From: a virus
Taxonomy: Duplodnaviria > Heunggongvirae > Uroviricota > Caudoviricetes
Direction: 5' to 3' (one strand)
DNA length: 44,255 nucleotides
Virus record (IMG/VR): IMGVR_UViG_2874920711_000009
Location: 1-44,255 of that record
Shown: in pieces, positions 5,259 to 20,017 of the stretch
Position numbering within the stretch: the first letter of the stretch is position 1
Layout of the letters: each line of letters begins with the position of its first letter
Notes under the pieces: model-generated
Database searches by the model: none
What the model saw: the letters and a program-made list of their open reading frames with translations, nothing else
Told to the model about the DNA's origin: nothing
Made by a program: the position numbers and the translations under genes

Positions 5259-5414
5259 CTGTTCCCTCCCTGTGCGGCATGGTCGCATGTGCGTGCGGAG
5301 GGGGTTACTGCTTTTTGTTGTCGCCGTGGCGGGAGAACGGCGCAGGGGTGAGATTACGCGCGTGGTGGGTGATGATTGTTGCCGAATCATTTAACGGATA
5401 CAAGGGCTGAAGCT

Positions 5415-6599
5415 ATGAGTGAAACTCGTTTTCATGGTGCCCGTGTTACGGCAAATACCGACCTGGTAACAGCGATTAACGATGTTGATTCCAGCATTAT
5501 CGGTATCGTGGCAACGGCGGATGATGCGGACGCGAAGCTGTTCCCGCTGAACAAGCCCACACTGCTGACCCGCGTCAATGACGTGCTGGGAAAATGCGGG
5601 ACAACGGGGACGCTTTATCGTGCGCTTAAGGCCATCGCAGACCAGGTGAGCACAAAGGTGATCGTCGTTCGCGTGGCTGAACACAAAGAAGAAGACGGAA
5701 AGACGCAGGATCAACTGGTTATCGGTGGTTCTGAGGATGACGGCAGCTATACGGGGATGTATGCGCTGCTTGTTGCAGAGCAGGATGAAAGCATCGGATA
5801 CCGTCCGCGTATTCTGGCCGCGCCGGAGCTGGACACGGAGGCGGTAACAAAATCCCTGTGCGTGATTGCGGGTAAACTGCGCGCGTTTGTGTATGCCTCA
5901 TGTCACGGCTGTAACACGATGGCTGAGGCGATTACCTACCGCCAGAAATTCAACGAACGTGAGGTGATGCTTCTGTGGCCGGATTTTATCGCTTACAACC
6001 CGAAAAGTGGTAAAAACGAAACGTTCCCCGCGCCTGCTTATGCGTGCGGCCTTCGTGCGTATATTGACCATGAGCAGGGCTGGCACAAATCGCTGTCCAA
6101 TGTTCCGGTTAAAAATGTCCTGGGCATGTCAAAACATGTTTTCTGGTCGTTACAGGCCGAGGACAGTGACGCCAACAGCCTCAACAACAAGGAAATCACC
6201 ACCATCATTCGCCGCAACGGGTTCCGCTTCTGGGGCAACCGCACACCGGAAACGAACGCCTACATCTTTGAGGTGTATACCCGAACCGCACAGGTGCTGG
6301 CTGATTCAATTGCGGAAGCGCAGTTTGAAACCATCGACAGTCCACTGACACCTGCGAACGTGAAGGATGTTATCAGCGCCATCAGGGCAAAACTGGATTC
6401 GCTGGTTACTGCCGGGAAACTGATTGGTGCGGAGTGCTGGTATGACGTGGTGGATAACGGCACCACGGATTTACGTCAGGGACGTGTGCGTATTCGCTAC
6501 AAATATACGCCCGTTCCGCCACTGGAAGACATGGAGCTTTACCAGACGTTTACTGATGAATTCTTTGGTCCCGCATTTGCGGTGCTGGGAGGTGCCTGA
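5415..6599 (+). CDS. FI: contractile tail sheath protein gpFI
   Basis: Intact ORF; strong similarity to recalled P2 FI (FPLNKP..., AIADQ..., LRAF.Y.S..GC.T..E...YRQ.F..RE.M..WPDF, GWHK.LSNV, IRR.GFRFWGNRT, Y.YTPVPPLE). Confidence 0.9.
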   Translation: MSETRFHGARVTANTDLVTAINDVDSSIIGIVATADDADAKLFPLNKPTLLTRVNDVLGKCGTTGTLYRALKAIADQVSTKVIVVRVAEHKEEDGKTQDQLVIGGSEDDGSYTGMYALLVAEQDESIGYRPRILAAPELDTEAVTKSLCVIAGKLRAFVYASCHGCNTMAEAITYRQKFNEREVMLLWPDFIAYNPKSGKNETFPAPAYACGLRAYIDHEQGWHKSLSNVPVKNVLGMSKHVFWSLQAEDSDANSLNNKEITTIIRRNGFRFWGNRTPETNAYIFEVYTRTAQVLADSIAEAQFETIDSPLTPANVKDVISAIRAKLDSLVTAGKLIGAECWYDVVDNGTTDLRQGRVRIRYKYTPVPPLEDMELYQTFTDEFFGPAFAVLGGA

Positions 6600-7108
6600 T
6601 GGCTGTACCAAAACATCTTCGCTTTTTTACGTTGTTTGTGGATGGTGAAAACGAAGTGGGCAAAGTGACATCCGTCACGCCGCCCAAACTGACGCGCAAA
6701 ACCGACAGCTATCGTGGTGGTGGCATGATGGGGCGGTAAGTATTGATCTCGGTCTGGACGACTCCGCGCTTGATGCGAGTTTTGTCATGGGGGAGCTGTT
6801 CGTGCGCTGTTCCTTAAATATGGCGGCACGATTGACGGCACGCTGCTGCGTTTTGCGGGTGAATACTACACCGATGCAGAAAGCGATCTGTATGAAATCG
6901 AGATGCGCGGGCGTGTGACGGAAATTGATATGGGGAAGCCAAACAGGGCGAAGCCACATCACACACTTACGCTGTCAAAAACACCTACTACAAGCTGAGC
7001 GTTAACGATCGCCCGCTGTGGGAAATCGACCTGTTGAACCACATCTACCGGAAGGACGGCAAGGACATTGTGCCTGACCGTATCCGTTCCGCGCTTGGGC
7101 TTGGCTGA
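6600..7108 (+). pseudogene. FII: tail tube protein gpFII, several frame breaks as given
   Basis: Starts MAVPKHLRFFTLFVDGENEVGKVTSVTPPKLTRK (FII-like) then loses frame; no long ORF in 6600..7110. Confidence 0.65.
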
Positions 7109-7163
7109 TAAGTAATATGCAGGCGGCGCAGTGCGTCGCCTCTGACTGAAAAGGAGACAACTA

Positions 7164-7538
7164 ATGAAAGACATCGATACTGAAACCCGGAATAACACCG
7201 TGGCGGATGATGTGACGGCAGGTGAGGATATGGCTGTCGAACGTGGCGTAAAACTGACCCGACCAATTGAGCGTGGTGGCGAAAAAATCACGTATGTGGA
7301 GATCACCGGGGCTATTGAGCAGGGTGGATCCCTGCGTGGTCTGTCGCTGTCTGATGTGCTGAATCTGAAAGCGGATACCATGTTTACGCTGTTGCCTCGC
7401 GTGACCTCGCCACGACTGGATGAAGTGATGATTAAAAAAATGTCGTCACGCGATTTTATTCAGTTGTGCGCTGTGGCTGTAAATTTTATGAGCGAGCCAG
7501 ACTCTGGCGCGAAGAGCGTGCAGGAGACGGCAGCGTAA
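7164..7538 (+). CDS. E: tail assembly chaperone gpE
   Basis: 124-aa ORF after FII with RBS AAAGGAGA; position and size class as P2 E. Confidence 0.75.
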   Translation: MKDIDTETRNNTVADDVTAGEDMAVERGVKLTRPIERGGEKITYVEITGAIEQGGSLRGLSLSDVLNLKADTMFTLLPRVTSPRLDEVMIKKMSSRDFIQLCAVAVNFMSEPDSGAKSVQETAA

Positions 7539-7702
7539 TCACCCTGGTGTGCTTTGAGCACATCGAAGATCTGGTGGCGGATATTGCCGCCATTTTTAAC
7601 TGGTCGCCCGCCGAAATCTTCATGATGACGCCCGGCGAAGTGGTTAGCTGGCGCGAGCGGGCGGCACTTCGCAGCGGGAATGCAGATAATGAAGACTCTT
7701 GA
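7164..7702 (+). CDS. E': gpE+E' fusion via programmed -1 ribosomal frameshift near the A7 run 7434..7440
   Basis: -1 frame opens exactly at the A7 run (stop TAA 7433..7435 just before) and continues to 7702, overlapping the T start at 7680. Confidence 0.5.
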
Positions 7703-10492
7703 TATCCGGGTCGCTTTCAGCGCCGTTGACAGGCTGACCCGGCCTGCCGAAAACGCCCGCCGCCTGATGGGGCAGTTTGGTGACTCCATCCAGCGAACTC
7801 AGGGGCGATCAAAAATCTCGAGCGTCAGGCGCGTTCATTTGAGCGCGCCCGTGACGCTGTCAGTAAAGCGGATGCGGGCATCGTGAAAGCACGACGCCAG
7901 CTTAACGCCCTTAATCAGTTACAACGCACGGGTACAGTGCTCAGCGAAAAACAACAAAAGCTGATGCAGCAGTTAAGCACCCGGCTTGAACGCCTGAATG
8001 AATCGCGCACACGGGAAATTCAGAAAATGCGGGAGCTTGGCGGAGAGCTGAAACGCCACGGCATTTCCCTGACAGGCAGCGATAACACCATCCAGCAGGC
8101 CATCAGACGCACCGAACAGTACAACAACCAGCTTGAACGCGAACGGCAGGCGCTTGCGCGTGTAACGCGGGCGCGTGAGCGGTATTCGCGCGCGCAGGAA
8201 ACAGCGGGAAAACTGAAAACAGGTGGTGCGCTGGCAATTGGGGCGGCAGCGGCGGGCGGCTATGCTGCCGGGCGTTTTTTGCAGCCCGCGATCGGGTTCG
8301 GCAAAGAGATGTCCCGCGTTCAGGCACTGACGCGAATAGACAAAAACAGCCCGCAGTTTAAAGCGCTGCGTGAGCAGGCGTTAAAACTTGGCTCTGAAAC
8401 ACAGTTTACTGCGAGTGATGCCGCCAGTGGGCAGAGCTTTCTGGCAATGGCTGGTTTTACTCCGCAGACCATTCAGGCCGCATTGCCCGGTGTTCTTAAT
8501 ATGGCGCTGGCAGGTGGCGTCGAACTCGGCGAGACAGATGATATAGGCTCCAATATCCTCACACAGTTCAACCTGACAGCCGATCAAATGGACCGGGTCG
8601 GCGATACGCTGACAGCGGCATTCACCCGGACCAATACTGATTTACGCGCGCTGGGCGAAACCATGAAGTATACCGGTCCGGTTGCCGCAAAACTTGGTAT
8701 CAGTCTTGAAGAAGCGGCAGCCATGGCCGGGATGCTTGCCAATAATGGTCTTCGTGGAAGCGATGCTGGTACGGCCATGCGCGCAAGTCTGTCCCGCCTT
8801 GCATCACCGCCAAAAGCTGTGGCTGATGCGCTGAAAGAGCTTGGGGTGTCAGTTGCTGACGCCAGAGGCAAAATGCGCCCGATGGAGGATGTGCTGCTTG
8901 ATCTCTATAAGGCGACACAAAAATACGGACAGGTGGACCAGGTCTCCTTCTTCAAGGACATCGCCGGAGAAGAGGCGTTCGTTGGTTTGCAGACGCTTGT
9001 TGCGGCGGCTGGTTCAGGAGAGCTGCAAAAACTGACCAGAGAATTGCAGGGGCAAGGGGAGAGGCCGATCGCGTTGCAAAAGTAATGGCCGATAATCTTG
9101 ATGGGGACCTGAAAAATCTCGACAGCGCATGGGAAGGTCTTCGTATTCGCATCAGTGATCTGGTTGACGGTCCGCTGCGTTCTGTCACGCAGTGGCTCAC
9201 GCGGGTGCTTGAAAAAATCACCTCGCTGGCGCAGGCCCATCCGGTACTGACGCGCCAGCTACTGATAGCAGGCGGTGCGTTGCTGGCAATGACTGCAACG
9301 ATTGGCTCATTGTCGCTGGTTATTGGGGCGCTTTACGGGAAGCTGGCCACCCTGCGTCTTGGTTTTGACATTCTTACCCGGTCAATGAATGTCGTCAGGG
9401 TTTTGCCTGCGCTGTGGGGAATGGTGACGGGTTCCGTTTCTTTACTGGGAGGCGCTATCGGGGCGCTGTTCAGTCCGGTTGGTCTTATCGTAGCTGCGCT
9501 TGCCGGAGCTGCCGTTCTTATCTGGAAATACTGGGATCCCATCAGGGCATTTTTTGCCGGGGTGTTCAGCGGGATTATGGAAAGGCTGACCCCGTTGCGC
9601 GAAACCTTTGAACGGTTTGGTCCTGTTTTTGAAGCAATCGGAAGCGGGATCAGCCAGGTGTTTAACTGGTTTAAATCGCTGCTGTCACCGATGGAGTCCA
9701 GCAAGGAAACGCTGGATAAATGTACCAGTGCTGGCGAGATATTCGGTAACGTTCTTGGCGGTGCGTTACAACTTGTTCTGACACTTGCAAAAATGTTGCT
9801 GGATACGCTGGCGTGGATACTTGAAAAGCTCGGTGTGCTTCCGGATGAAGCGGAAAGGGCGCGCAAGAAAATCGAAGACGCACAGCGTGCGGCCATTCTT
9901 CAGGACAAGGTTGCCTTGCTTCAGGGGGACCTGGCGAAAATCAATCCGCCGAAGCCTGTGGAAAATGGCAATGGCACCGGAGGTGATAAGCCCAAAGACA
10001 ACAAACCGCTCACAGATAGCAATACCGGTACGCTACGCAGACTCAGCAAAATTGCTGATAACACAGGTAAGCTGGTTGATGAGACGAAAAAACGCATTGG
10101 CCCCGGCGATATTGTCTTTAAGAACCTGCCCGCGCACTTGCTGTTCGTGGGGAGTGGCAGGAGCGGAAGATTGCGCAGGTCAGTAAGCCTGCCCCCGCAA
10201 TTAATATCACCCCGTGGTTCCGGCTCCGCTGCCTCCTGCGCTGGTCCCTGTTATTGCGGCCAGCTCCCGCCCGGTGGCGGAGGCCATACGATCGCCAGTG
10301 GCATCAGTTCCTGCAACTTCCCGTAACCGGGAGCCTGTTGCCTCCGGATTTGGCGGTGAAATTCATGTTCATCTGCATAACGTTGTTACGCAGAATCCCC
10401 GCGAACTGGCGAAACTGGTCGGTGAAATGGTCAGGGCAGAAATGGAACGGCGCGCCCGTGCCTGGCGTGGCAGTTTTTACGATAAAGATTGA
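7680..10492 (+). pseudogene. T: tail tape-measure protein gpT, at least three frame breaks as given
   Basis: Fragments 7680..7886, 7883..9085, 9085..10326, 10214..10492; coiled-coil and Gly/Ala-rich TM-like stretches typical of tape-measure proteins; break near 9050 sits in G4 runs. Confidence 0.8.
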
Positions 10493-10498
10493 GGAGTC

Positions 10499-10993
10499 AT
10501 GGCCATGATGATGATCTACGGCATGTTTGTTTTTGAGCTGCGCACGTTGCCGCATCAGCAGTTACAGCAAAACAAAAGCTGGCGACATGTGAAAAATGAA
10601 CGCGTTAACCGTTCAGCAAGCTGGCAGTATATCGGTGCAGGTGATGATCGCATCGTTCTTTCTGGTGTTCTTTATCCTGAGATTACTGGTGGCGAAGTGT
10701 CGCTGTCGTTGTTGACCACGCAGGCATATACAGGACGTCCTTGGCCTTTGATTGATGGCGTCGGGCAGATTTACGGCATGTATGTCCTGACCGGAACGAA
10801 TACGACCCGCTCCGAGTTTGATCGCTACGGTAAGGCGAAAAAGATAGAATTTTCACTGACTCTTGAACGCTGTGATGAGGATTTGCGGGAGCGCCTGCAA
10901 TCCTCATCGTTCAGCGATATGCTGTCCGGCTTCAAAGATAAGGTGACATCATCCCTTAATAGCGCGGCCAGCTCAGTTAAGGGGCTGCTCTGA
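10499..10993 (+). CDS. U: tail protein gpU
   Basis: 164-aa ORF with GAGGAG RBS; MMMIYGMFVFELRT... resembles P2 gpU. Confidence 0.85.
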   Translation: MAMMMIYGMFVFELRTLPHQQLQQNKSWRHVKNERVNRSASWQYIGAGDDRIVLSGVLYPEITGGEVSLSLLTTQAYTGRPWPLIDGVGQIYGMYVLTGTNTTRSEFDRYGKAKKIEFSLTLERCDEDLRERLQSSSFSDMLSGFKDKVTSSLNSAASSVKGLL

Positions 10994-11149
10994 TTTAACG
11001 TATGTCGCCAATTTCCTGATGAAGGTGACTGGCGACTTGCTGTTGTATGTCCTTCTCAGAAAATTGTTTTTGAATAACAAATAACAGGATTTTATAATCT
11101 CTTAACCTTATAACATGTGTGGTCTGAAATAATAATTAAGGAGATTATC

Positions 11150-11722
11150 GTGCTATCTTACTTAATGGCAATTCACTTTGTTTTATTTGGAAACTCTACT
11201 AATTTAAAAAACTTCTGGAAACATGAAGTAATTCGGCGGAAACGTATGGATATCTGGAGGCTTTTAAGAGAGAAAAAGCAGCGTAACCGGAATTTCCTTT
11301 TCTGGTGGCGGTTGGCTAACGAAATGTATATTAATGGTAATAAATTACATAAGAAAGCAGCCAAAAAGTTAAACAGTAAAATAATTAACAAGTTTGGTTG
11401 TGAAATAGGATTGGGCGCAAATATTGGAAAAGGGTTGACAATTCCCCATCATGCTGGAATTGTTGTTCATTTTGCTGTTGATGCGGGTGAAAATCTGGTA
11501 TTACGACAGAATACTACCATTGGACAGATAGATGGTGATATGCCTGGTTCAAGAGTAAAAATTGGTAGTAACGTTGATATCGGAGCTAATTGTTGCATCA
11601 TTGGATTATCACGTAAAATTGGGGATAATGTAAAAATAGGTGCAATGTCTTTTATAAATAAAGATATACCATCAAATTGCACATATATAACTAAAAAGAG
11701 TGGTGTTGTATTGTATAAATAG
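11150..11722 (+). CDS. hexapeptide-repeat acetyltransferase (serine O-acetyltransferase / WcaB-like), low-GC cargo
   Basis: IGLGANIGKGLTIPHHAGIVVH...IG.N..IG hexapeptide repeats; AAGGAG RBS 7 nt before GTG 11150 (ORF track frame opens at 11117); AT-rich. Confidence 0.65.
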   Translation: MLSYLMAIHFVLFGNSTNLKNFWKHEVIRRKRMDIWRLLREKKQRNRNFLFWWRLANEMYINGNKLHKKAAKKLNSKIINKFGCEIGLGANIGKGLTIPHHAGIVVHFAVDAGENLVLRQNTTIGQIDGDMPGSRVKIGSNVDIGANCCIIGLSRKIGDNVKIGAMSFINKDIPSNCTYITKKSGVVLYK

Positions 11723-11729
11723 AGTACAT

Positions 11730-11769
11730 AAAGCCATCGATATTTTTGTCGATGGCTTTTTCTTTTTAT
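11730..11769 (+). terminator. rho-independent terminator
   Basis: 11-bp stem AAAGCCATCGA/TCGATGGCTTT with 8-nt loop followed by a T-run. Confidence 0.55.
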
Positions 11770-12343
11770 TGTGGGGCGACTGGCCACTCAACATCCGCTG
11801 CTACTGTTGTATCAACACGATTCAACAATACCCGATATGTCTTCCATGCAGCCAGTAACGATGCCTCTTCCTCCGTCGCAATATCCAAATCTACGGCATC
11901 CTGAAGTGGCGCAATATGCTCACTGGCTACCTGCATCAGGCTGTTTTTTGTTTCTTCTGCCTCCCGTACCCGAAACAGTTTTTCTGCTTCTGCATCTTTC
12001 GCCCAGGATGTGCCGTTCCACTTCTGACACTCTCCATCCGGCGACAACTAGGTAACATTTTCCGGTAACGGACCGAGTTCAGAAATAAATAACGCGTCCC
12101 CTGATGCCACGTCATAAACAGTTTTACCCCGATGATCTTCAACGAGATGCCACGATGCCTCATCACTGTTGAAAACAGCCACGAAGCCAGCCGGAATATC
12201 TGGCGGTGCAATATCGGTACTGTTTGCAGGCAGACCTGTATGAGGTGGAATGTATGCATCACCTTCCCCAATAAATTCATTAGTTCCGGCCAGCAGGTTA
12301 TAAATTTTTATGGCCGTGATTGTTCACTCATTCTGAAATCCAT
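11766..12343 (-). pseudogene. tfa: tail fibre assembly chaperone (Tfa family), inactivated
   Basis: Body ...[22 protein letters not shown]...[27 protein letters not shown] is Tfa-like; frame break after codon 11 at a T5/A5 run and an in-frame TAG (ENVT*LSPDG) near 12051. Confidence 0.7.
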
Positions 12344-12351
12344 GTTCACCT

Positions 12352-13254
12352 CTACTTAATATCAGAGACAGAATATTGTTTATTGAGCGTATGGGTGGGA
12401 GTACCAATAACGATGCTACTTCCGTGGCTATGTGCGCCAGAGGTGACATTACCTACGGGATTTTCTGGATTAATCCGGTGTATATGCGAACCAGGGCGAA
12501 AACGGTTATTAGCCTGATGTTGTATCAGTACATCATCAGCCTGATGTTCAGGGTTAATACAGACTTGCCCGGAACGTGAGCAACACGTCCGATAATCGCC
12601 GCATCCAATATATTTAGTATCCGCATAACGGCAAACAGAATTACCCGGACAGTATGCATATGTGCCAAATACTGCCGACTGGCGAGATTGTGCGTATTCC
12701 CAGTTAATTGATTCTGTTTTTTTATTAAAGTTATCCCATGCCTGCTTCATCTGTCGTGCAACACTTTCAAACGGCACCTGACCACATCCGGCCCCCATTG
12801 CAGGGAATACCACTGTTTTTATTTTCATGTCTGTCGTTGCGTTTTTATTGTGCTGAAAGATGGCAAGCAGAGCGGCCCAGGTTGCGTTATATACAGCGTC
12901 TGTTCCGTCAATTGTCAACGGAACACGCATTGTTGGCGCATGTACCAGCCAGGGGTGATGATTATGCCCCGTTTCAATGACAAATGCAGAACCTACAGGC
13001 TGTTCGCCGAGATATTCACGAAGAATATGATTCTGAACGCGGGACTGTAACTGAGTACCGAAGAATGCGGTAATGGCGGCATCAACGCCACCATCCATCA
13101 GGCCGAAACTATTTGCCGCACTTACCATGCAGTCAAATTGTCTGATTGTTTCAAATGGCTTTCCGACAATATTCACACTATCTGCATTTGCAAATATCCG
13201 TTTAAATGCTTCAGCCATTTCTGTTACTGGTGCAGAAAGAATGAGCGTAATCAT
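12352..13254 (-). CDS. macro-domain protein with C-terminal Cys/His-rich extension
   Basis: Macro-domain motifs [62 protein letters not shown]; start ATG 13254..13252 overlaps the H stop TGA 13253..13251. Confidence 0.7.
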
Positions 13255-15397
13255 GCAAGCCTCACAATATAGTTAAATGCGATGTTTTTTACGGTGTTTT
13301 CTGCGTTACCCGTAGCGTTAACGGTGATGGTATGCCCGTGTGAACCTATCGCAACGGAGTGTGTGTGTGCACCAATTCCTACCGTATGAGTGTGTGCGCC
13401 AATATTTACTGTGTGAGAGTGCCCCCTGCGTTACTTGTTTTTCCAGTGCCAAGCCCTGAGTTATAACCAGCCGAAACACCATTACCAGCACCAGTGTTAC
13501 CAACAGGAATATTGTGTGAATGATCCCCGGCGCTATTCGTGGTTTTAGTGCCATGGTTAAATGAACTGGACGTCTTGGTACCGTAATCAAACGACGATGT
13601 GGTTTTCGTCCCCAAATCCGTACTGGATGCACTGGCGCTGTGGGTGTGCGATTTAATGCCGTCCTGTTCCTGAGACAATACTGCACGACCACTGGCGGGC
13701 TTGCCCTTAATCGTCCAGCTACGCATATCAGGGATCACGCCTGACGGATAAGCGGCTGCAAGTTTCGGGTATGCAGATTTGTCAAAAGTCTGCCCCTGCA
13801 TCAGGGCATAACCAGACGGAACGGTATCTGATGGCCAAGGGATCGGTGCGCCAACCGGATAAAGTTCATGAGGCGAAATATACAGCGAATAAACAGAACC
13901 GTCCGTTAATCCTTCCGGCTTATTAGCAGAATATGCTGGTGAAGTATGAATCGTTACGCTGGCGTTACTGGTATAATCCCACTGAATATTAACACCTGTG
14001 GCGTAATTACCTATTTCAACATAAACATCATAGGTATCACCGGATGTATTCACCCATGCAAAATTAGTAAATCCAACCGATGTCCGTCGCCATAACGCAC
14101 CAGTAAGACCTTTTGGATTTCCATTTCCCGCACGAAGAACAAGTTCAGATATACCTGCCTGTTGAGGTGACTCTACGTTAAATCCCGCGCCACCAATCAA
14201 CGTAATTGAAACAACAGAACTCGCCTGCGGCATGGTTACCGTTGCTAATTTGAACCAACCAGCACCACCGCTGAATGACATAGTTGTTGAGTTAAGCGTA
14301 CCAATATCTTTCGGCGTCAGTGTAATATCCGCTGAAAGCGCCTTACCATTCACCTTACGGGCAGAAGGTACCCGACCATTCGCATTGTCATTAGCTGCTT
14401 TCACTGCTTTCGGTGTCGCGGCAAGCGTTTCAGATGTGCTGTTAGTCGCGCTGCTTAGCTGGACAATCCCTTTTTGTGCTGTCGTAGCGTCCTGAGCGGT
14501 ATATTTCCCGTTAGCAAGGTCATATGCTGTCTTTACCGCTTTCGGTGTTGCGGCCGGTGCTTCAGACGTGCTGTTGGTGGCGCTACTGAGCTGGACAAGG
14601 CCTTTCCGCGCTGTGGTGGCATCCTGCGCAGTATATTTCCCGTTAGCAAGGTCATATGCTGCCTTTACCGCCATTGGTGTTGCCGCCAGCGTTTCAGAAT
14701 CGCTGTTGGTGGCGCTACTGAGCTGGACAAGGCCTTTTCGCGCTGTGGTGGCATCCTGCGCAGTATATTTCCCGTTAGCAAGATCATACGCGGCCTTTAC
14801 TGCTTTCGGCGTTGCAGCCTGCGTTTCAGACACGCTGTTAGTGTCGCTACTGAGTTGAACAAAGCCTTTTGCGGTCAGCGAGGCGTCCGGGTGACGTCGT
14901 GACTGTTCATGTTCTTTCAGTTTGTCATTCACGTAATCCACTGTGGCCATAACCATGGTGTTATCCACGGTAAGCGCCACGGTGGCAGTGCTGGATACGG
15001 TCAGAATGGTGCGAAATGTTTGTGCACGTCCGGATCCTTCGGCAACGGTTGGTTTGTAACTTTCGGCAGTATTGCCCACCGCGATCAAATCGCCGTGCTC
15101 ATCAAATACACCAATTTCCCGGATCCAGAATCCGCCCGTTTCAGGAGGAATAACCAGCTCCGCAATAATGCGGTTCTGATGTGTTGCGTCCAGGATGACG
15201 CGATTAACAGTATGTCGCCACACCTCATGCACCAGACGGGTCTGCTTACTGTCTGGTGTGGGCAACGTGCCGCCACCGTCGCCCACGGCCATATGAGTCA
15301 GGCGGACAGGATTACCATCTGGCGCGGCAGCCTGAGCTAATTTTTTGGCACCAGTATCAGTGATAATGGTTTTAAATTTTCGTGTTGTGGTACTCAT
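13251..15397 (-). pseudogene. H: tail fibre protein gpH, frame break at a C5/G5 run near 13422..13426
   Basis: 663-aa ORF 13406..15397 plus out-of-frame C-terminus [57 protein letters not shown]; one extra G would restore the frame. Confidence 0.85.
14410..14890. repeat. four tandem copies of a ~114-bp coding repeat inside H
   Basis: Repeated 38-aa unit KG[FLI][36 protein letters not shown] visible in protein and DNA. Confidence 0.7.
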
Positions 15398-15399
15398 GC

Positions 15400-15930
15400 T
15401 TAATCGTCCGGATAAATGGTAATGACTTCACCGTCGTAAGTTGCTGCCGCCGCGAAAATATCCCCCGGGATCTCCTGAATGATATTCAGCCCTGTCATGT
15501 GGCGGCTGACCGGGCGGGCATCAGCAATCAACCGCTCCATTTCCAGATACATTTCCTCCGTCACGCCACTGTCCAGCGTGCCGACTTCAACGGTAAATGT
15601 TCCCGGTTCTCCGCCGAACTCCCACCACTCAGACACGCGAATGAGGTATCCCAGCGGCTCAATGGCCCTGCGCAGTGCGCTGATGGTCCCTTTGTGTCGG
15701 TGTATCAGCCATGCATCACGAATCACCTGTCGCTTTGTCTCTTCCGGCCAGTTGCGATCCCAGCGGTCAACGGAAAACGCCCAGGCGAGATAAGGCAGCA
15801 GGTGCACCGGGCAGGTGTCCGGCGACCACAGCGTGTTGAGGTCTACCGGAATGTCTGTAATGCGTGTTCCGACTGCTTCGGCACAACGCATGAAACTGCT
15901 GGCTGATGGCGGTAACAGTGAATTACTCAT
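15400..15930 (-). CDS. I: baseplate assembly protein gpI
   Basis: ORF track 15400..15963; likely start is ATG 15930, which overlaps the gpJ stop (ATGAGTAA). Confidence 0.8.
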
Positions 15931-16742
15931 TGCGCCCACCTTCGCTGATGGTAAATGACTCACAGCGCGCCGCCTGTATGTCGCTGATGGCCATATTCTG
16001 TGTGGGTTCGATTATCTCCACGCGTTGCACGCCGTGCACATGCAGTGCGGCAGCAATGGCGGACAACGCCACGTCCTGACCGATAAGCCCCTGTTCAGCC
16101 AGCCACTTCCTGAATGACGATTCTGGCGCTCTGTACCGTCAGGCGGTCGGCCACCGGGCGGGTATCCTCTGCATTCAGAACGGCGCGAACGGTATTAAGC
16201 AACGCCTCCGTTGCTGTGCCGTCGCCTTCAGTGGACAGGATGGAAACCGTCACACAGGCCGGAGACGGACTGATAGCCCGCGCATCGCGCACCAGACCGC
16301 TGGCGCTGCGGGCAAAATACTCGTATGCACCTGACGGGCCAGCAACACTCAGGCCGTCGTACGCCCGCTGCGCCCGCAGTCTCAGCGAGGTGTCGCTCTC
16401 CATCACCGCGTCGGTGGTATCCGTTGCCGGAGTGATAACCAGGCGCTTTGTGTTCATATTGCCCGCGAGGTTGTCCAGGTTTGTCCCTGAACCGTGGCTT
16501 AACATACAGGCGCGTGCGCCCTCATTGACCCGCTGGCGTAACAGCATTTCACGAAACGACATGGTTTGAGCGATAACGTTAAGGGGTTCCGATTCCAGCT
16601 CCAGCGCGGCGGAAACGGCTTCACGCTGTTCGGCGGGATAGGACGCAATCATCATGGCCTTTGTGTCAGCCAGAATTGCTTCAAAGTCAGGCTCCGCGAT
16701 GATGGCGGGTTCCGGTAACTGGGAAAGGTCAACGGCGGGCAT
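15923..16742 (-). pseudogene. J: baseplate protein gpJ, frame break near 16095
   Basis: 215-aa fragment 16095..16742; remaining C-terminus (...LIGQDVALSAIAAALHVHGVQRVEIIEP...) continues in another frame to 15923. Confidence 0.8.
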
Positions 16743-16745
16743 GAT

Positions 16746-17095
16746 TTACTCCCTCAGCGTGATGGTTAACTCAACATTCTGCATGGTCTGCATGACAGTG
16801 CCCGACAGCGTCACCCCGGCGCGGCCTCCGCTTTCCAGACAACGTCGATGGCATCCAGGGCAATGCGGGGTTCCCATCGTGTCAGCGCAATCACGGCAGC
16901 ACTCATGCATTGCAGACGCGTGGTGTTATTCATGGGTTCGTCAATCAAATCAGGCACAAGGCTGCCATATTCCCGTCGCATAACCCGGCTTGCCAGCGGG
17001 GTGGTCAGGATGTCCCTGACTGACTGTTTCAGGTGCTCCATATCGTTCAGGTTTCCCGTTCCGTCCGGGTTCATTCCTGTGTAGCGGGTTGTCAC
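16746..17095 (-). pseudogene. W: baseplate wedge protein gpW (gp25-like), frame break near 16811
   Basis: 94-aa ORF 16811..17095; C-terminus continues in +1 frame to the TAA just before the J start; break at a CCGGGG run. Confidence 0.7.
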
Positions 17096-17673
17096 TGCGG
17101 GCCTCCTGTCGAATCGCTGCCGCCTTTAACGCCACCGTGTTTATGCGTATGCACTGTGATGCCGTTTGAGGTGAAATCGCCGCCGCTGTGCGTGATATTG
17201 CCGCTCATCTTTCCCCCTTTTGTGACGTCAAGCGTCGCTGTTCTCAGAAGGTCTGTGCATTCCACGACGGGCGTATCCAGTGTCACGCTGACGGATGCCT
17301 GCAGGGTGGCCGTTTTCATGCCGCTGGCGCTCAGTGCGCCTGCGTCCGCGTCGTAGCGGAACACCGCGCCATCCGGCGCGCTGACCACGATTTCTTTCAG
17401 GCTTTTTCCGGGGGCCGGATTGGCATCACTCCACAGGCTGCCAATTATCATGGCGGTTTCCGGGTTGCCGCCGATGCAGGCAATTACCACCTGTTCGCCT
17501 GGTGATGGCGGCAGCCACACATTGAAGGCTCCCGCGCGCGTGGTGTTCCAGCGCAACCAGCCTGTTTCCAGTTCGCCGCTGCGAACGCGAACGCGCCAGG
17601 ATTCCTCATCAACTTCAGAGATGATCCCGGTGCGGATGATGTTGCTCAGTAGCCGCATGAGTTCTGCGCTCAC
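17092..17673 (-). CDS. V: baseplate spike/hub protein gpV
   Basis: 193-aa ORF; position between S and W; P2 V-like sequence character. Confidence 0.85.
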   Translation of the reverse strand: MSAELMRLLSNIIRTGIISEVDEESWRVRVRSGELETGWLRWNTTRAGAFNVWLPPSPGEQVVIACIGGNPETAMIIGSLWSDANPAPGKSLKEIVVSAPDGAVFRYDADAGALSASGMKTATLQASVSVTLDTPVVECTDLLRTATLDVTKGGKMSGNITHSGGDFTSNGITVHTHKHGGVKGGSDSTGGPQ

Positions 17674-18314
17674 CGTACAGCCTCCGCAATCCGGCCCAGC
17701 ACCGTGTTATAAATCAGGCGTTCATCTGCCTGACTGATGCCCAGCAGCTCACGTACCGGGTAATCGGTGAAAATGCCCGGCGCAACCTGATCGCGCTCAC
17801 CGAACTGATGAACGCGTGCAATACGTGCAGCCACGCCGCTGTAACCCACCGTCACACCGGAAGCATCCGCACGGGCTTTCAGGTAGCGGGTGGTGCGCAG
17901 TTTTACGAACATGGGGACGCGCTTTGTGCTGTCCTGGTTGATGCGCCGGGTGCGTATTTCCAGAAAACGGTCGATGTCATCCCGGTAAAACGTGCGGATA
18001 TTGTTTTTATCCTCATCCCACCCGGTAATGGTTCGCCCGTATTTCCCCGTGTCGTGATGCCAGTTTTTCAGCGTGCGTGATTCGTTATTCCAGATAAAGC
18101 GAATGCGTTCCTGTATCCGGGTTACGCGGCGTCTGCGTGGTGTCCACGCGGTCCCGTCCGGCGCTTTCTGTGACCGGATACGCGCCTGCTGGGCGCGGCG
18201 TAAATCCTGTGCCAGCTTTCTGGCGATGTTATTGATGGCCTGCTGATTCAGGCTGTCGCGGATGGCCTCAAAGGTTTCATCCACGCGGGTGAATGCCTTA
18301 TCCATCGCTTTCAC
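17670..18314 (-). CDS. S: tail completion protein gpS
   Basis: 214-aa ORF overlapping V start and R stop as in P2 operon. Confidence 0.8.
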   Translation of the reverse strand: MKAMDKAFTRVDETFEAIRDSLNQQAINNIARKLAQDLRRAQQARIRSQKAPDGTAWTPRRRRVTRIQERIRFIWNNESRTLKNWHHDTGKYGRTITGWDEDKNNIRTFYRDDIDRFLEIRTRRINQDSTKRVPMFVKLRTTRYLKARADASGVTVGYSGVAARIARVHQFGERDQVAPGIFTDYPVRELLGISQADERLIYNTVLGRIAEAVR

Positions 18315-18765
18315 CCCACGTCACATCCTGGAATACATGCGACCAGTCGCCTTCGGAAGATGGCAGGCGGGGTTTTGGCTCCGGCAGGTGTTCTGCCTGC
18401 GGTGTGCCCTGATTGCTGCGCGTGATGCGAACGCGTTCCCGCAGGGGGAGCGTAAACAGGAGATCGGCGCTGTCATCGTCATTGATAACGGCGGAGAATT
18501 TGATGTCCTGATTACGCTCAGGGTTGAGCAACAACTGTGGCTGATTTTCGGATAACCACGCCAGCAGCGGCAGCGTGAGGTCATCCAGCTCCCCGGCGTA
18601 ATCCATGACAAACATCACCATCTGATAGCGGTAAACAAACGATGGGGTTTCTCCTGTCGTTTCAATGTTACCGCTCTCCACGAAAATGGTGAATTTTTCC
18701 GGGTTGGCCTGACACCATCGGCATGAACGGGTCATGGCTTCACGCAGGGAATCAGTTTTCAGCAT
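18298..18765 (-). CDS. R: tail completion protein gpR
   Basis: 155-aa ORF upstream of S, P2 order. Confidence 0.8.
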   Translation of the reverse strand: MLKTDSLREAMTRSCRWCQANPEKFTIFVESGNIETTGETPSFVYRYQMVMFVMDYAGELDDLTLPLLAWLSENQPQLLLNPERNQDIKFSAVINDDDSADLLFTLPLRERVRITRSNQGTPQAEHLPEPKPRLPSSEGDWSHVFQDVTWGESDG

Positions 18766-19042
18766 GGTTGTTGTCCTCGTTGTTCAGTCGTTGCAGCCTG
18801 CGCTGTTCCAGTAATTCAATGGCCCGTTTATCCGTGTTACAGGTTTCCAGTGCATCCAGAAGGCGGTCGCCCCATATACCGAGATTTCCCCATGTGGGAG
18901 TGTCAGGGAAGGGGGGAGGCGTTACCGGTATGGTCAGCGTCTGCGGTATAAGCCGGACTGACGGCGCTGGCCGTGGCGCGTTCTGCGTGCCTGCGCAACC
19001 TGTCAGTAAAACGAGCGTCAGGCAAAGCGTGGGCGCATTCAT
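18752..19042 (-). CDS. lysC: o-spanin lipoprotein (LysC/Rz1-like)
   Basis: MNAPTLCLTLVLLTGCAG lipobox, Pro-rich; embedded in and extending past the LysB region in another frame. Confidence 0.6.
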   Translation of the reverse strand: MNAPTLCLTLVLLTGCAGTQNAPRPAPSVRLIPQTLTIPVTPPPFPDTPTWGNLGIWGDRLLDALETCNTDKRAIELLEQRRLQRLNNEDNNHAEN

Positions 19043-19309
19043 CTTTTGCAATATCGTTGCGTAGCTGTTCACGTCTGGCCTCTCCGTCCTGATTTCGTTG
19101 TTGATTTTCCACGCGGAGTTGCGCCAGCACCTGCTGCATATCCTGTACCCGGTGCTGATGATATTCAGGGTGTCGACGGTGCTTTTCAGTGCGCTGGCCT
19201 GCGCTTCGTTTCTGGCGTTCTCCCGGCCCAGCGACCACGACAGACGCATGGATGTTCCCCATGCGGCAATCAGAAGGAAAGCGACGCCCAGCGTGGGCCA
19301 GAGCTTCAT
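18903..19309 (-). pseudogene. lysB: i-spanin (LysB/Rz-like), frame break as given
   Basis: N-terminal TM segment MKLWPTLGVAFLLIAAWG in one frame; coiled-coil remainder (QHRVQDMQQVLAQLRVENQQRNQ...) in ORF 18903..19262. Confidence 0.5.
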
Positions 19310-19698
19310 GCCGGATAGGCTCCGTGTGGTAACTGAAAATGCGGTCCGTCTTTCAGGGTCTTCCAGTCGCCGCCCCATTCCACCGGAATATTCAGTTCCC
19401 GGCTGGCCTGTCTGAATGCTGCTGCGATTTTTTCGTACAGCGGCCATTCCCATGACACCTGGCTACCGATATAAGCCACAACATCCACGGCATGCCCCGT
19501 AAGGTGGCGGCTGTTCATGGTCTGGCTCTTACCCGTGGCCACAAGTTGCTTCTGGCGGTAACGGCTGCGCAACCCTTCGGTGATACCAAAATCCACTTCC
19601 GAGATTTCCAGTGCCCGTCGGGTCACTTTCACCAGATCAGGATTTACGCCCTGCAAATTCTTTTCGCTCCGGCTGCTGAATTTAAATGTGTTGCTCAT
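19306..19698 (-). CDS. endolysin, peptidase M15-type (Zn-dependent peptidoglycan peptidase)
   Basis: HLTGHAVD ... WGGDW ... DGPHFQL motifs typical of M15 endolysins. Confidence 0.8.
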   Translation of the reverse strand: MSNTFKFSSRSEKNLQGVNPDLVKVTRRALEISEVDFGITEGLRSRYRQKQLVATGKSQTMNSRHLTGHAVDVVAYIGSQVSWEWPLYEKIAAAFRQASRELNIPVEWGGDWKTLKDGPHFQLPHGAYPA

Positions 19699-19711
19699 TC
19701 GTCCTTCTCCT

Positions 19712-20017
19712 TCACCCTGCGATTAAAGGCCGCAATAACCTTGTCGTGTGCTTTCTCTGCCCCATAAAACCGATTGATGCGCCGATAAACGTCACGGCAT
19801 CTTCAGGAAAACCGAAGAAGCGCAACGACCCGGCCACGGCCATGGCAAGAACGCCGCACGCCAGCGATCCCGTTACGGTCTGAACCAGTGTTCGTCCGTC
19901 ATAAAGACTCATCAGCGCGGAAATGCTGACCGCCGCGCCTACTGCATACACCGTTGGCAGGTGGTCAAAGAGCCATGCAATAACCTGCTCTGTGATCCCT
20001 GTTTGAATGGTGCTCAC
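19712..20017 (-). CDS. holin
   Basis: 101-aa ORF with two hydrophobic helices directly upstream of the endolysin. Confidence 0.55.
   Translation of the reverse strand: MSTIQTGITEQVIAWLFDHLPTVYAVGAAVSISALMSLYDGRTLVQTVTGSLACGVLAMAVAGSLRFFGFPEDAVTFIGASIGFMGQRKHTTRLLRPLIAG

Follow-up and report, generated by a model that had tools for sequence, protein, structure and literature searches.

A macro-domain gene between the tail fibre and its assembly gene

The window considered here is the whole 44,255-nucleotide stretch of the viral record IMGVR_UViG_2874920711_000009 (Caudoviricetes). Between its tail fibre gene H and the tail fibre assembly gene tfa lies an open reading frame (ORF) encoding a macro-domain protein with a Cys/His-rich tail. 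As far as can be judged by sequence comparison, this macro gene is an optional accessory of T4 gp37 / lambda Stf-type fibre cassettes in temperate enterobacterial phages. An earlier note on this DNA had placed a macro-domain ORF in this slot and proposed its translational coupling to H. Both observations stand: the 300-codon ORF is present and uninterrupted, every motif cited in the note is found in its translation, and the ATGA overlap with H is seen in the window and in all 89 related loci collected. The features of the gene are as follows (dN/dS, ratio of nonsynonymous to synonymous substitution rates).

12352..13254, minus strand: macro-domain ORF, 300 amino acids and a stop codon; member of PHROG 2613 and of the NCBI 'macro domain-containing protein' group
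13251..13254, minus strand: ATGA overlap of the fibre stop and the macro start, candidate site of translational coupling; same overlap in related loci
12670..13254, minus strand: macro core, residues 1-195, with N48-x6-G55-G56-V57-D58 and the glycine loop G154-A-G-C-G158 (Pfam, AlphaFold, Foldseek, dN/dS)
12535..12669, minus strand: Cys4 knot, residues 196-240, with C202, C208, C225, C232 and H237 (alignment invariants, dN/dS, model)
12352..12534, minus strand: variable GxHxH-repeat tail, residues 241-300 and the stop codon, fibre-needle-like (hhalign, BLASTP)

Loci with and without the macro gene

IMG/VR was scanned with the C-terminal module of the fibre, and the sequence 3' of the fibre stop codon was inspected. 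There were 70 informative loci, in nearly all of which the C-terminal 230 residues of the fibre are 99-100% identical to one macro-linked type. The fibre runs straight into tfa in 67 of them, and the macro gene is present in the other three. The insert is a precise 0.9-kb segment (903 nt) and its junctions are clean: macro-less loci read '...gcaTAATGgcattcag' and macro-carrying ones '...gcATGA[903 nt]TAGaggtgaacATGgatttcag' (also written '...cttgcaTAATGgcattcagaatgagt' and '...cttgcATGAttacg...[macro]...TAGaggtgaacATGgatttcagaatgagt', respectively). The Tfa alleles are alike with and without the macro gene (about 89-91% identity to the reference). An isogenic P2-like prophage of E. coli CP66-6 (L249), located at the same flk-adjacent site and otherwise collinear, has the fibre followed by tfa. 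In PhiR26_1, an isolated lambdoid phage propagated on MG1655, the 230-residue fibre end is 100% identical and Tfa comes directly after it. T4 and lambda have the homologous fibre module and no macro gene.

Since the same fibres go directly into tfa in its absence, the macro protein is not a required assembly factor. A required partner should be constantly present with its fibre type, and this is not what was observed in the 67 loci, PhiR26_1, lambda, T4 and the isogenic prophage. This argues against one proposal of the earlier note, a fibre-associated accessory module, insofar as the fibre would need it. Identical macro tails are paired with up to three unrelated inserts at the receptor-binding tip, and one tip is paired with two different macro tails, or with none. 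Given these pairings and the macro-less loci, the macro protein is neither a receptor-binding determinant nor a factor needed by the fibre type. The macro tail does not co-vary with the receptor tip, and there is no co-adaptation of the fibre or of Tfa.

The cassette is horizontally mobile, as it occurs in P2-like, lambdoid and P1-like backgrounds. A survey of homologues beside tail fibre genes, proposed in the earlier note, recovered the fibre-macro-tfa unit in P2-like prophages, including those of O157:H7 and O55:H7 strains, in the isolated Peduoviridae phages SEN4, SEN5 and Chuche, in a P1-like phage-plasmid, and in the lambdoid Salmonella prophage Gifsy-1, where STM2588.1n, encoding a 274-residue form of the protein, is situated between Stf and Tfa.

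The macro start codon at 13254..13252 shares bases with the fibre stop codon TGA at 13253..13251. This 4-nt overlap is kept in 89 of the 89 loci. In all of them the fibre ORF 5' of the macro gene ends with ...Y[IL]VRLA, and tfa is the next gene wherever the sequence continues intact. The macro ORF itself is intact in the 89 loci, which come from three phage lineages. The refuting case named in the earlier note, that the ORF is a mis-framed C-terminal segment of the fibre, was rejected because the ORF encodes a full macro fold under purifying selection. A fibre-macro fusion produced by frameshifting was rejected as well, as inspection of the sequence revealed no slippery site at the ATGA junction.

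The annotation 'macro domain-containing protein' occurs in 128 of 5,426 complete E. coli genomes (2.4%), at 109 chromosomal and 22 plasmid places. A protein search yielded 1,712 relatives, mostly from Escherichia, Salmonella, Citrobacter, Enterobacter and Erwinia, many of them named 'phage tail protein'. The match to PHROG 2613 is full-length (E=7.4e-146, residues 1-271 on profile positions 1-272 of 274). The claim that the protein is not a described component needs correction: the family is already annotated, as PHROG 2613, in Gifsy-1 (STM2588.1n), in SEN4 and SEN5, and in Chuche, although full-text literature searches turned up no functional study of it. The Macro-Cys4-HxH architecture, the precise optional address between stf or H and tfa, and the role of the gene as a plug-in of gp37/Stf-type host-range cassettes in three lineages of temperate phages appear to be new to the searchable literature; the family is in databases and phage macrodomains as such are known.

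The macro core

The Pfam Macro domain (PF01661) matches residues 44-169 over profile positions 1-118 of 118, with 67.9 bits (gathering cut-off 22 bits) and E=9.5e-19. AlphaFold was run with an alignment of 76 diverse homologues, replacing a first run with 15 close homologues that had a mean predicted local distance difference test score (pLDDT) of 58. In the resulting model pLDDT is 92-99 over residues 1-190 (about 97), and the three-layer alpha/beta/alpha macro fold is seen both in the model and in its structural matches. With Foldseek, 203 PDB matches were obtained at E<=0.001, and each of the 50 best listed (E<=9.4e-6) is a macrodomain or a design derived from one. The top match is the yeast ADP-ribose-1''-monophosphatase Ymx7/YMR087W (1NJR; E=2.7e-11, 201 columns, root mean square deviation 2.8 Å), followed by TTHA0132, macroH2A, the MacroD-type domain of Oceanobacillus, MacroD2, YmdB and DarG. 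Sequence searches of the PDB agree on the macrodomain identity. The macro hallmarks recognised by the earlier note in the first ~185 residues are thus confirmed by the profile and structure searches that it had named as a check.

The MacroD-type signature Nx6GG[VLI]D is present as N48-SFGLMD-G55 G56 V57 D58, and the second loop as G154-A-G-C-G158. Both are invariant in an alignment of 15 members of the fibre-linked clade. Among the 76 sequences of the wider family, G158 is invariant, and conservation of N48, G56 and D58 reaches at least 90%. The dN/dS of the core, from Nei-Gojobori estimates of Escherichia, Salmonella and Erwinia copies against the window copy, is 0.08-0.15 (about 0.1). In Izhakiella the core is likewise conserved.

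The core belongs to a very large family of stand-alone macrodomain proteins of ~200 residues, with 2,349 cluster representatives from Chloroflexi, cyanobacteria, Acidobacteria and protists. No T4-like relatives of the macro protein were found at E<=1e-5. Neither the domain fusions of its homologues (Hpt, DUF6508, TPR and, in protists, WD40, phosphatase and RRM) nor the gene neighbourhoods of 73 cellular homologues, among which no neighbourhood is conserved, gave a functional clue. Macrodomain genes of jumbo phages named 'tail protein' or 'phage tail assembly-like' were considered as an independent link to tails and rejected. They stand alone in non-structural contexts, and so their labels are probably copied annotation.

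The Cys/His-rich tail

The core is followed by a knot with the consensus YCPx4-5C...YIGxGDxRTxCx3Gx2CIx3HQ, in which C202, C208, C225, C232 and H237 are invariant or nearly so within the clade. A beta-hairpin at residues 211-225 is modelled at pLDDT 63-74, and the Cys4 knot is possibly a zinc-ribbon-like element. Its dN/dS is 0.15-0.27 across Escherichia, Salmonella and Erwinia. The HxH tail has a dN/dS of 0.27-1.0. These values for core, knot and tail mean that the protein is under selection and that its tail evolves fast. There are 2-4 GxHxH units per tail, the length differing among clades, and the window copy lacks one HxH motif (GAHTHT to GTPTHT).

The earlier note had remarked that the Cys/His-rich end recalls the HxH motifs of fibre tips. 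This impression is borne out, as the tail aligns with the returning needle strands of the fibre, GAHxHxVxIGxHxH (hhalign 93.9%, E=1.6e-7, 31 columns); BLASTP between the macro tail and the fibre gives E=4e-4. In such short repeats, the likeness could reflect either convergence or common origin.

The knot and the HxH tail are peculiar to the fibre-linked phage clade, and homologues that are not fibre-linked have neither. Cellular homologues end with '...RQxxIRYGGD...' and have no further domain. The nearest untailed homologue (64% identity) comes from another phage, in which it is encoded in an accessory region with ParB and methyltransferase genes. A search with the C-terminal 113 residues alone retrieved only three fragments and no outside homologues of the tail, and a PDB profile search with the tail alignment gave no match.

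In Izhakiella the Cys-rich segment is strongly diverged (dN 0.84), and the tail is unrelated in sequence, yet again rich in Cys and HxH. Three copies of the fibre-macro-tfa cassette are present in one genome of Izhakiella australiensis (L012-L014). Their tails are even richer in Cys and HxH (CGC.., CDCGCG, GRHNHY, GAHTHS, GCHDH, GAHHHG) and resemble metal-binding tails.

One 463-residue protein (P0006, from a Logan contig of 8.4 kb) has ParM/StbA domains joined to the last ~240 residues of the macro protein, at 100% identity. It is probably a product of misassembly or of a rearranged prophage, because the prophage lineage of the window also has ParM-like partition genes.

The tail fibre and its assembly gene

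The two neighbours of the macro gene are the following.

13251..15397, minus strand: tail fibre gene H, with a P2-type N-terminus, fibre repeats, and a T4 gp37 / lambda Stf-type collar, HxH needle and variable tip
11766..12343, minus strand: tail fibre assembly gene tfa (Caudo_TAP family), disrupted in the window near 12314 and by a TAG at 12048..12050

The last ~230 residues of the fibre form the receptor-binding module of T4 gp37 and lambda Stf. A profile of seven fibre C-termini matches the solved gp37 tip (2XGF) with E=2.7e-87 over the whole module, including the HxH motifs and the conserved C-terminus; the Pfam Collar domain is found with E=3.5e-12, and in tblastn the module is 67% identical to T4 gp37 and 72% to lambda Stf. 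In gp37, the HxH motifs hold seven iron ions along a trimeric needle whose folding requires gp38 and gp57A (PMC6957217). The receptor-binding tip is a hypervariable insert between the outgoing and returning HxH strands, and it differs widely among the macro-linked fibres.

In the window, H is split by a 1-nt deletion near 13422 (a run of G5 instead of G6). The inactivation of tfa, already pointed out in the earlier note, is seen as a 1-nt deletion outside homopolymers after codon 10 near 12314 (GGACC to GGCC), unique to the window, and as a change of TGG to TAG at 12050..12048. The gene is intact in all relatives examined, and neither lesion is present there. Judging by these lesions, tfa may be genuinely inactive in this strain.

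The tail genes FI-FII-E-T-U (about 5376..10993, plus strand) converge on V-W-J-I-H-(macro)-tfa (11766..19453, minus strand), unlike the arrangement in P2. This layout is normal for this subgroup of Peduoviridae, as the isolated phage SEN5 (L005) has it too.

Expression context

The macro gene has a GC content of ~45%, like the 3' end of the fibre gene and tfa. Promoter-like and terminator-like matches in its region show no excess over the shuffled expectation. The macro gene thus has none of the marks of a moron, namely its own promoter, a terminator and deviant base composition. Since it has no such signals and resembles its neighbours in GC content, the macro gene is, on these predictions, transcribed with the late fibre operon and translated with it through the ATGA coupling to H. 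In a microarray study of mutagen-treated Salmonella, STM2586-STM2587-STM2588 formed one co-regulated operon (PMC2225428); by gene order, STM2587 would be the macro ORF.

Beside tfa, and convergent to it, lies a gene for a hexapeptide-repeat acetyltransferase (11117..11722, plus strand), named 'serine acetyltransferase' in relatives. It has a GC content of 33-37%, a sigma-70-like promoter matching at 10 of 12 positions (11070-11098) and a terminator with a 13-bp stem (11730-11759). Because of the low GC content and its own promoter and terminator, this gene is a classic candidate moron. It accompanies the fibre-tfa cassette in P2-like prophages, whether or not these have the macro gene, and also in a P1-like phage-plasmid (L250).

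Frame breaks in the window

Compared with close E. coli relatives, the window has ~29 isolated single-base differences, all of them deletions and mostly in G/C runs (e.g. at 49, 3487, 6789, 7802, 13422, 20025 and 39983). They break 12 of the ~24 prophage genes and the chromosomal gene flk. Most of the frame breaks probably reflect read or assembly error and not decay of the prophage.

The earlier note had drawn attention to an ORF intact among broken neighbours. Selection keeping the macro ORF whole amid decaying genes was rejected as an explanation, since the homopolymer deletions also hit flk. At ~0.9 deletions per kb, a 0.9-kb ORF would escape with a chance of ~0.4. Given this chance and the resemblance of the breaks to homopolymer read errors, the intactness of the ORF in the window carries no weight.

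The holin gene (near 19700-20000 of the window, minus strand; 17089..17412 in L002) is interrupted by an in-frame stop in the window, and likewise in an O157:H7 relative, whose copy RefSeq lists as a pseudogene. The prophage lineage may thus be lysis-defective.

Proposed function

As the leading candidate, though held tentatively, we propose that the gene encodes a late-expressed accessory protein that hydrolyses or binds ADP-ribose, has a needle-like metal-binding tail, is dispensable to the fibre, and most plausibly serves counter-defence. The macro core would bind a ligand containing ADP-ribose and probably hydrolyse it, the substrate being a phosphate, ester or glycosidic conjugate. The tail would be a metal-dependent, needle-like element for oligomerisation or docking, folded by the same Tfa/gp38-type chaperone. 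Such folding would explain why the gene is located exactly between the fibre and tfa, and why no tailed homologue occurs outside fibre cassettes. The benefit would be conditional and would consist in neutralising host immunity based on ADP-ribose, that is, ADP-ribosylation or signals derived from nicotinamide adenine dinucleotide (NAD). The immunity in question would act, or be triggered, late in infection, as fibres and chaperones accumulate.

For a gene that is conserved although it can be dispensed with, a conditional benefit is the most economical explanation. Counter-defence is preferred because of the roles of macrodomains in other phages. The T4 macrodomain protein AdfM acts as counter-defence against DarTG2 (bioRxiv 10.1101/2025.11.20.689424). 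A recent preprint reports that how sensitive Pseudomonas phages are to type II Thoeris, a system whose His-ADPR signal is read by a macrodomain, depends on their side tail fibres as folded with the fibre chaperones. The enzymatic hypothesis of the earlier note, a reversal of ADP-ribosylation, is plausible, the signature being intact in the sequence.

Several observations weigh against counter-defence by an ADP-ribose hydrolase. A counter-defence protein that is made late and not injected could act only on late-acting immunity. The tail keeps its needle-like character across genera, a hint of some physical connection with the fibre, for which a purely cytoplasmic enzyme would have no obvious need. 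The model of this tail is of low confidence (pLDDT <50 for residues 239-300). The His of the MacroD motif 'GGGVDGAIH' is replaced by Thr62. None of the NCBIfam equivalog cut-offs (MacroD/YmdB/AF1521, PRK00431 models) is reached, the best score being 52.2 bits against 246, and the protein is not an orthologue of these named enzymes. Nor does it look like a DarG-type antitoxin: the PADLOC DarG model gives 13.9 bits (E=0.007), and the neighbours are the fibre gene and tfa, with no DarT. Hence the substrate cannot be derived by orthology.

One alternative, which we consider unlikely, is a decoration of the fibre carried by the virion. The tail would dock the protein on the distal fibre, possibly via Tfa or the needle, and the macro domain would be an extracellular lectin or esterase acting on a sugar-phosphate or O-acetylated glycan, so modulating host range or adsorption. 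The gene position and coupling are typical of accessory proteins of fibre tips, the tail is like the needle strands of the fibre and evolves rapidly (dN/dS up to 1.0), in the manner of exposed parts of fibres, and many database entries say 'phage tail protein'. However, whether or not the gene is present, the fibres and Tfa alleles do not differ, which leaves no vacant site or co-adapted docking surface, and the macro tail varies independently of the receptor-binding tip. Adhesins diversify, but the residues of the ADP-ribose site do not vary. The 'tail protein' labels seem to have been passed on from entry to entry, since the homologues from jumbo phages that bear them stand alone in non-structural neighbourhoods.

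Distinctly improbable, in our view, is an auxiliary assembly factor or metallochaperone, whose tail would bind Fe2+ or Zn2+ and deliver it to the HxH needle, or template the needle, giving a better fibre yield in some conditions. The composition of the macro tail is presumably like that of metal-binding tails such as that of SlyD, which we take as a lead only. The location of the gene between the fibre and the chaperone fits this role. So does the requirement of homologous needles, which hold seven iron ions, for gp38 and gp57A (PMC6957217). However, the gene is dispensable for identical fibres, the strongly conserved ADP-ribose site would be left without a role, and the HxH repeats are not constant in number (2 to 4), one motif being lost in the window copy.

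A variant of counter-defence would tie the enzyme to the trigger of immunity, and we give it little credence. Here an active hydrolase would be physically tethered by its tail, either to the fibre-Tfa complex during folding or to the completed fibre, and signals or marks derived from ADP-ribose would be destroyed at their source. The fibre-Tfa complex is the kind of structure reported to trigger immunity of the TIR/Thoeris type, and the gene would be a plug-in of host-range cassettes exchanged among P2-like, lambdoid and P1-like phages.

It is scarcely credible that the gene is a functionless hitch-hiker, illegitimately recombined into the 3' end of the fibre gene and kept by linkage, its tail being a fibre-derived scar: the in-frame likeness of the tail to the HxH repeats of the fibre and the low prevalence (2.4% of complete E. 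coli genomes, 3 of 70 loci for one fibre type) would fit, but purifying selection is strong (dN/dS 0.08-0.15 in the core and 0.15-0.27 in the Cys knot among Escherichia, Salmonella and Erwinia), an unbroken ORF is kept at 89 loci belonging to three phage lineages, and the Cys/HxH character is kept even where the tail sequence is unrelated, in Izhakiella. The probability left beyond the leading candidate and the three rivals (decoration, metallochaperone and hitch-hiker) belongs to something not yet thought of.

Comparison with known systems

The T4 gp37-gp38 and lambda Stf-Tfa cassettes (tip 2XGF) have the same fibre module and likewise a downstream Tfa of the Caudo_TAP family. However, they consist of two genes, the fibre and then the chaperone, whereas the cassette of the window has the 903-nt macro gene precisely between them. 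The T2/S16-type gp38 adhesin is likewise a small protein encoded beside the distal fibre gene, and it associates with the gp37 tip. It is hypervariable and determines the receptor. The macro protein, in contrast, is conserved and varies independently of the tip sequence, and a separate Tfa is retained in its cassette.

Phages are also known to encode stand-alone macrodomains whose presumed role is the removal of ADP-ribose marks, namely AdfM/Tk.4 of T4, directed against DarTG2, and the DarG2-like antitoxins of chimalliviruses. These proteins are DarG/ALC1-like and not fibre-linked. In contrast, the protein of the window is not DarG-like, is encoded in a late operon, and has a Cys4 knot and an HxH tail. 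The best structure and sequence matches of the core, including its N-terminal extension, are yeast YMR087W (1NJR) and the stand-alone macrodomain proteins of ~200 residues (TTHA0132, 2DX6). However, the identity to the core is only 20-26%, and the cellular members end with '...RYGGD' and lack the Cys/His tail.

Phage macrodomains are emerging as counter-defence enzymes. Several carriers of the macro gene are well studied, namely Gifsy-1 of Salmonella LT2, prophages of strains O157:H7 and O55:H7, and the isolated phages SEN4, SEN5 and Chuche. Therefore the hypotheses are directly testable with natural isogenic pairs that have or lack the gene. If the gene proved neutral, it would be an ordinary accessory gene. 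There is as yet no evidence of an unusual mechanism, and the gene poses a well-defined and experimentally tractable puzzle. If the tail is a Tfa-dependent mini-needle, the macro protein would be the first non-fibre client of a fibre chaperone.

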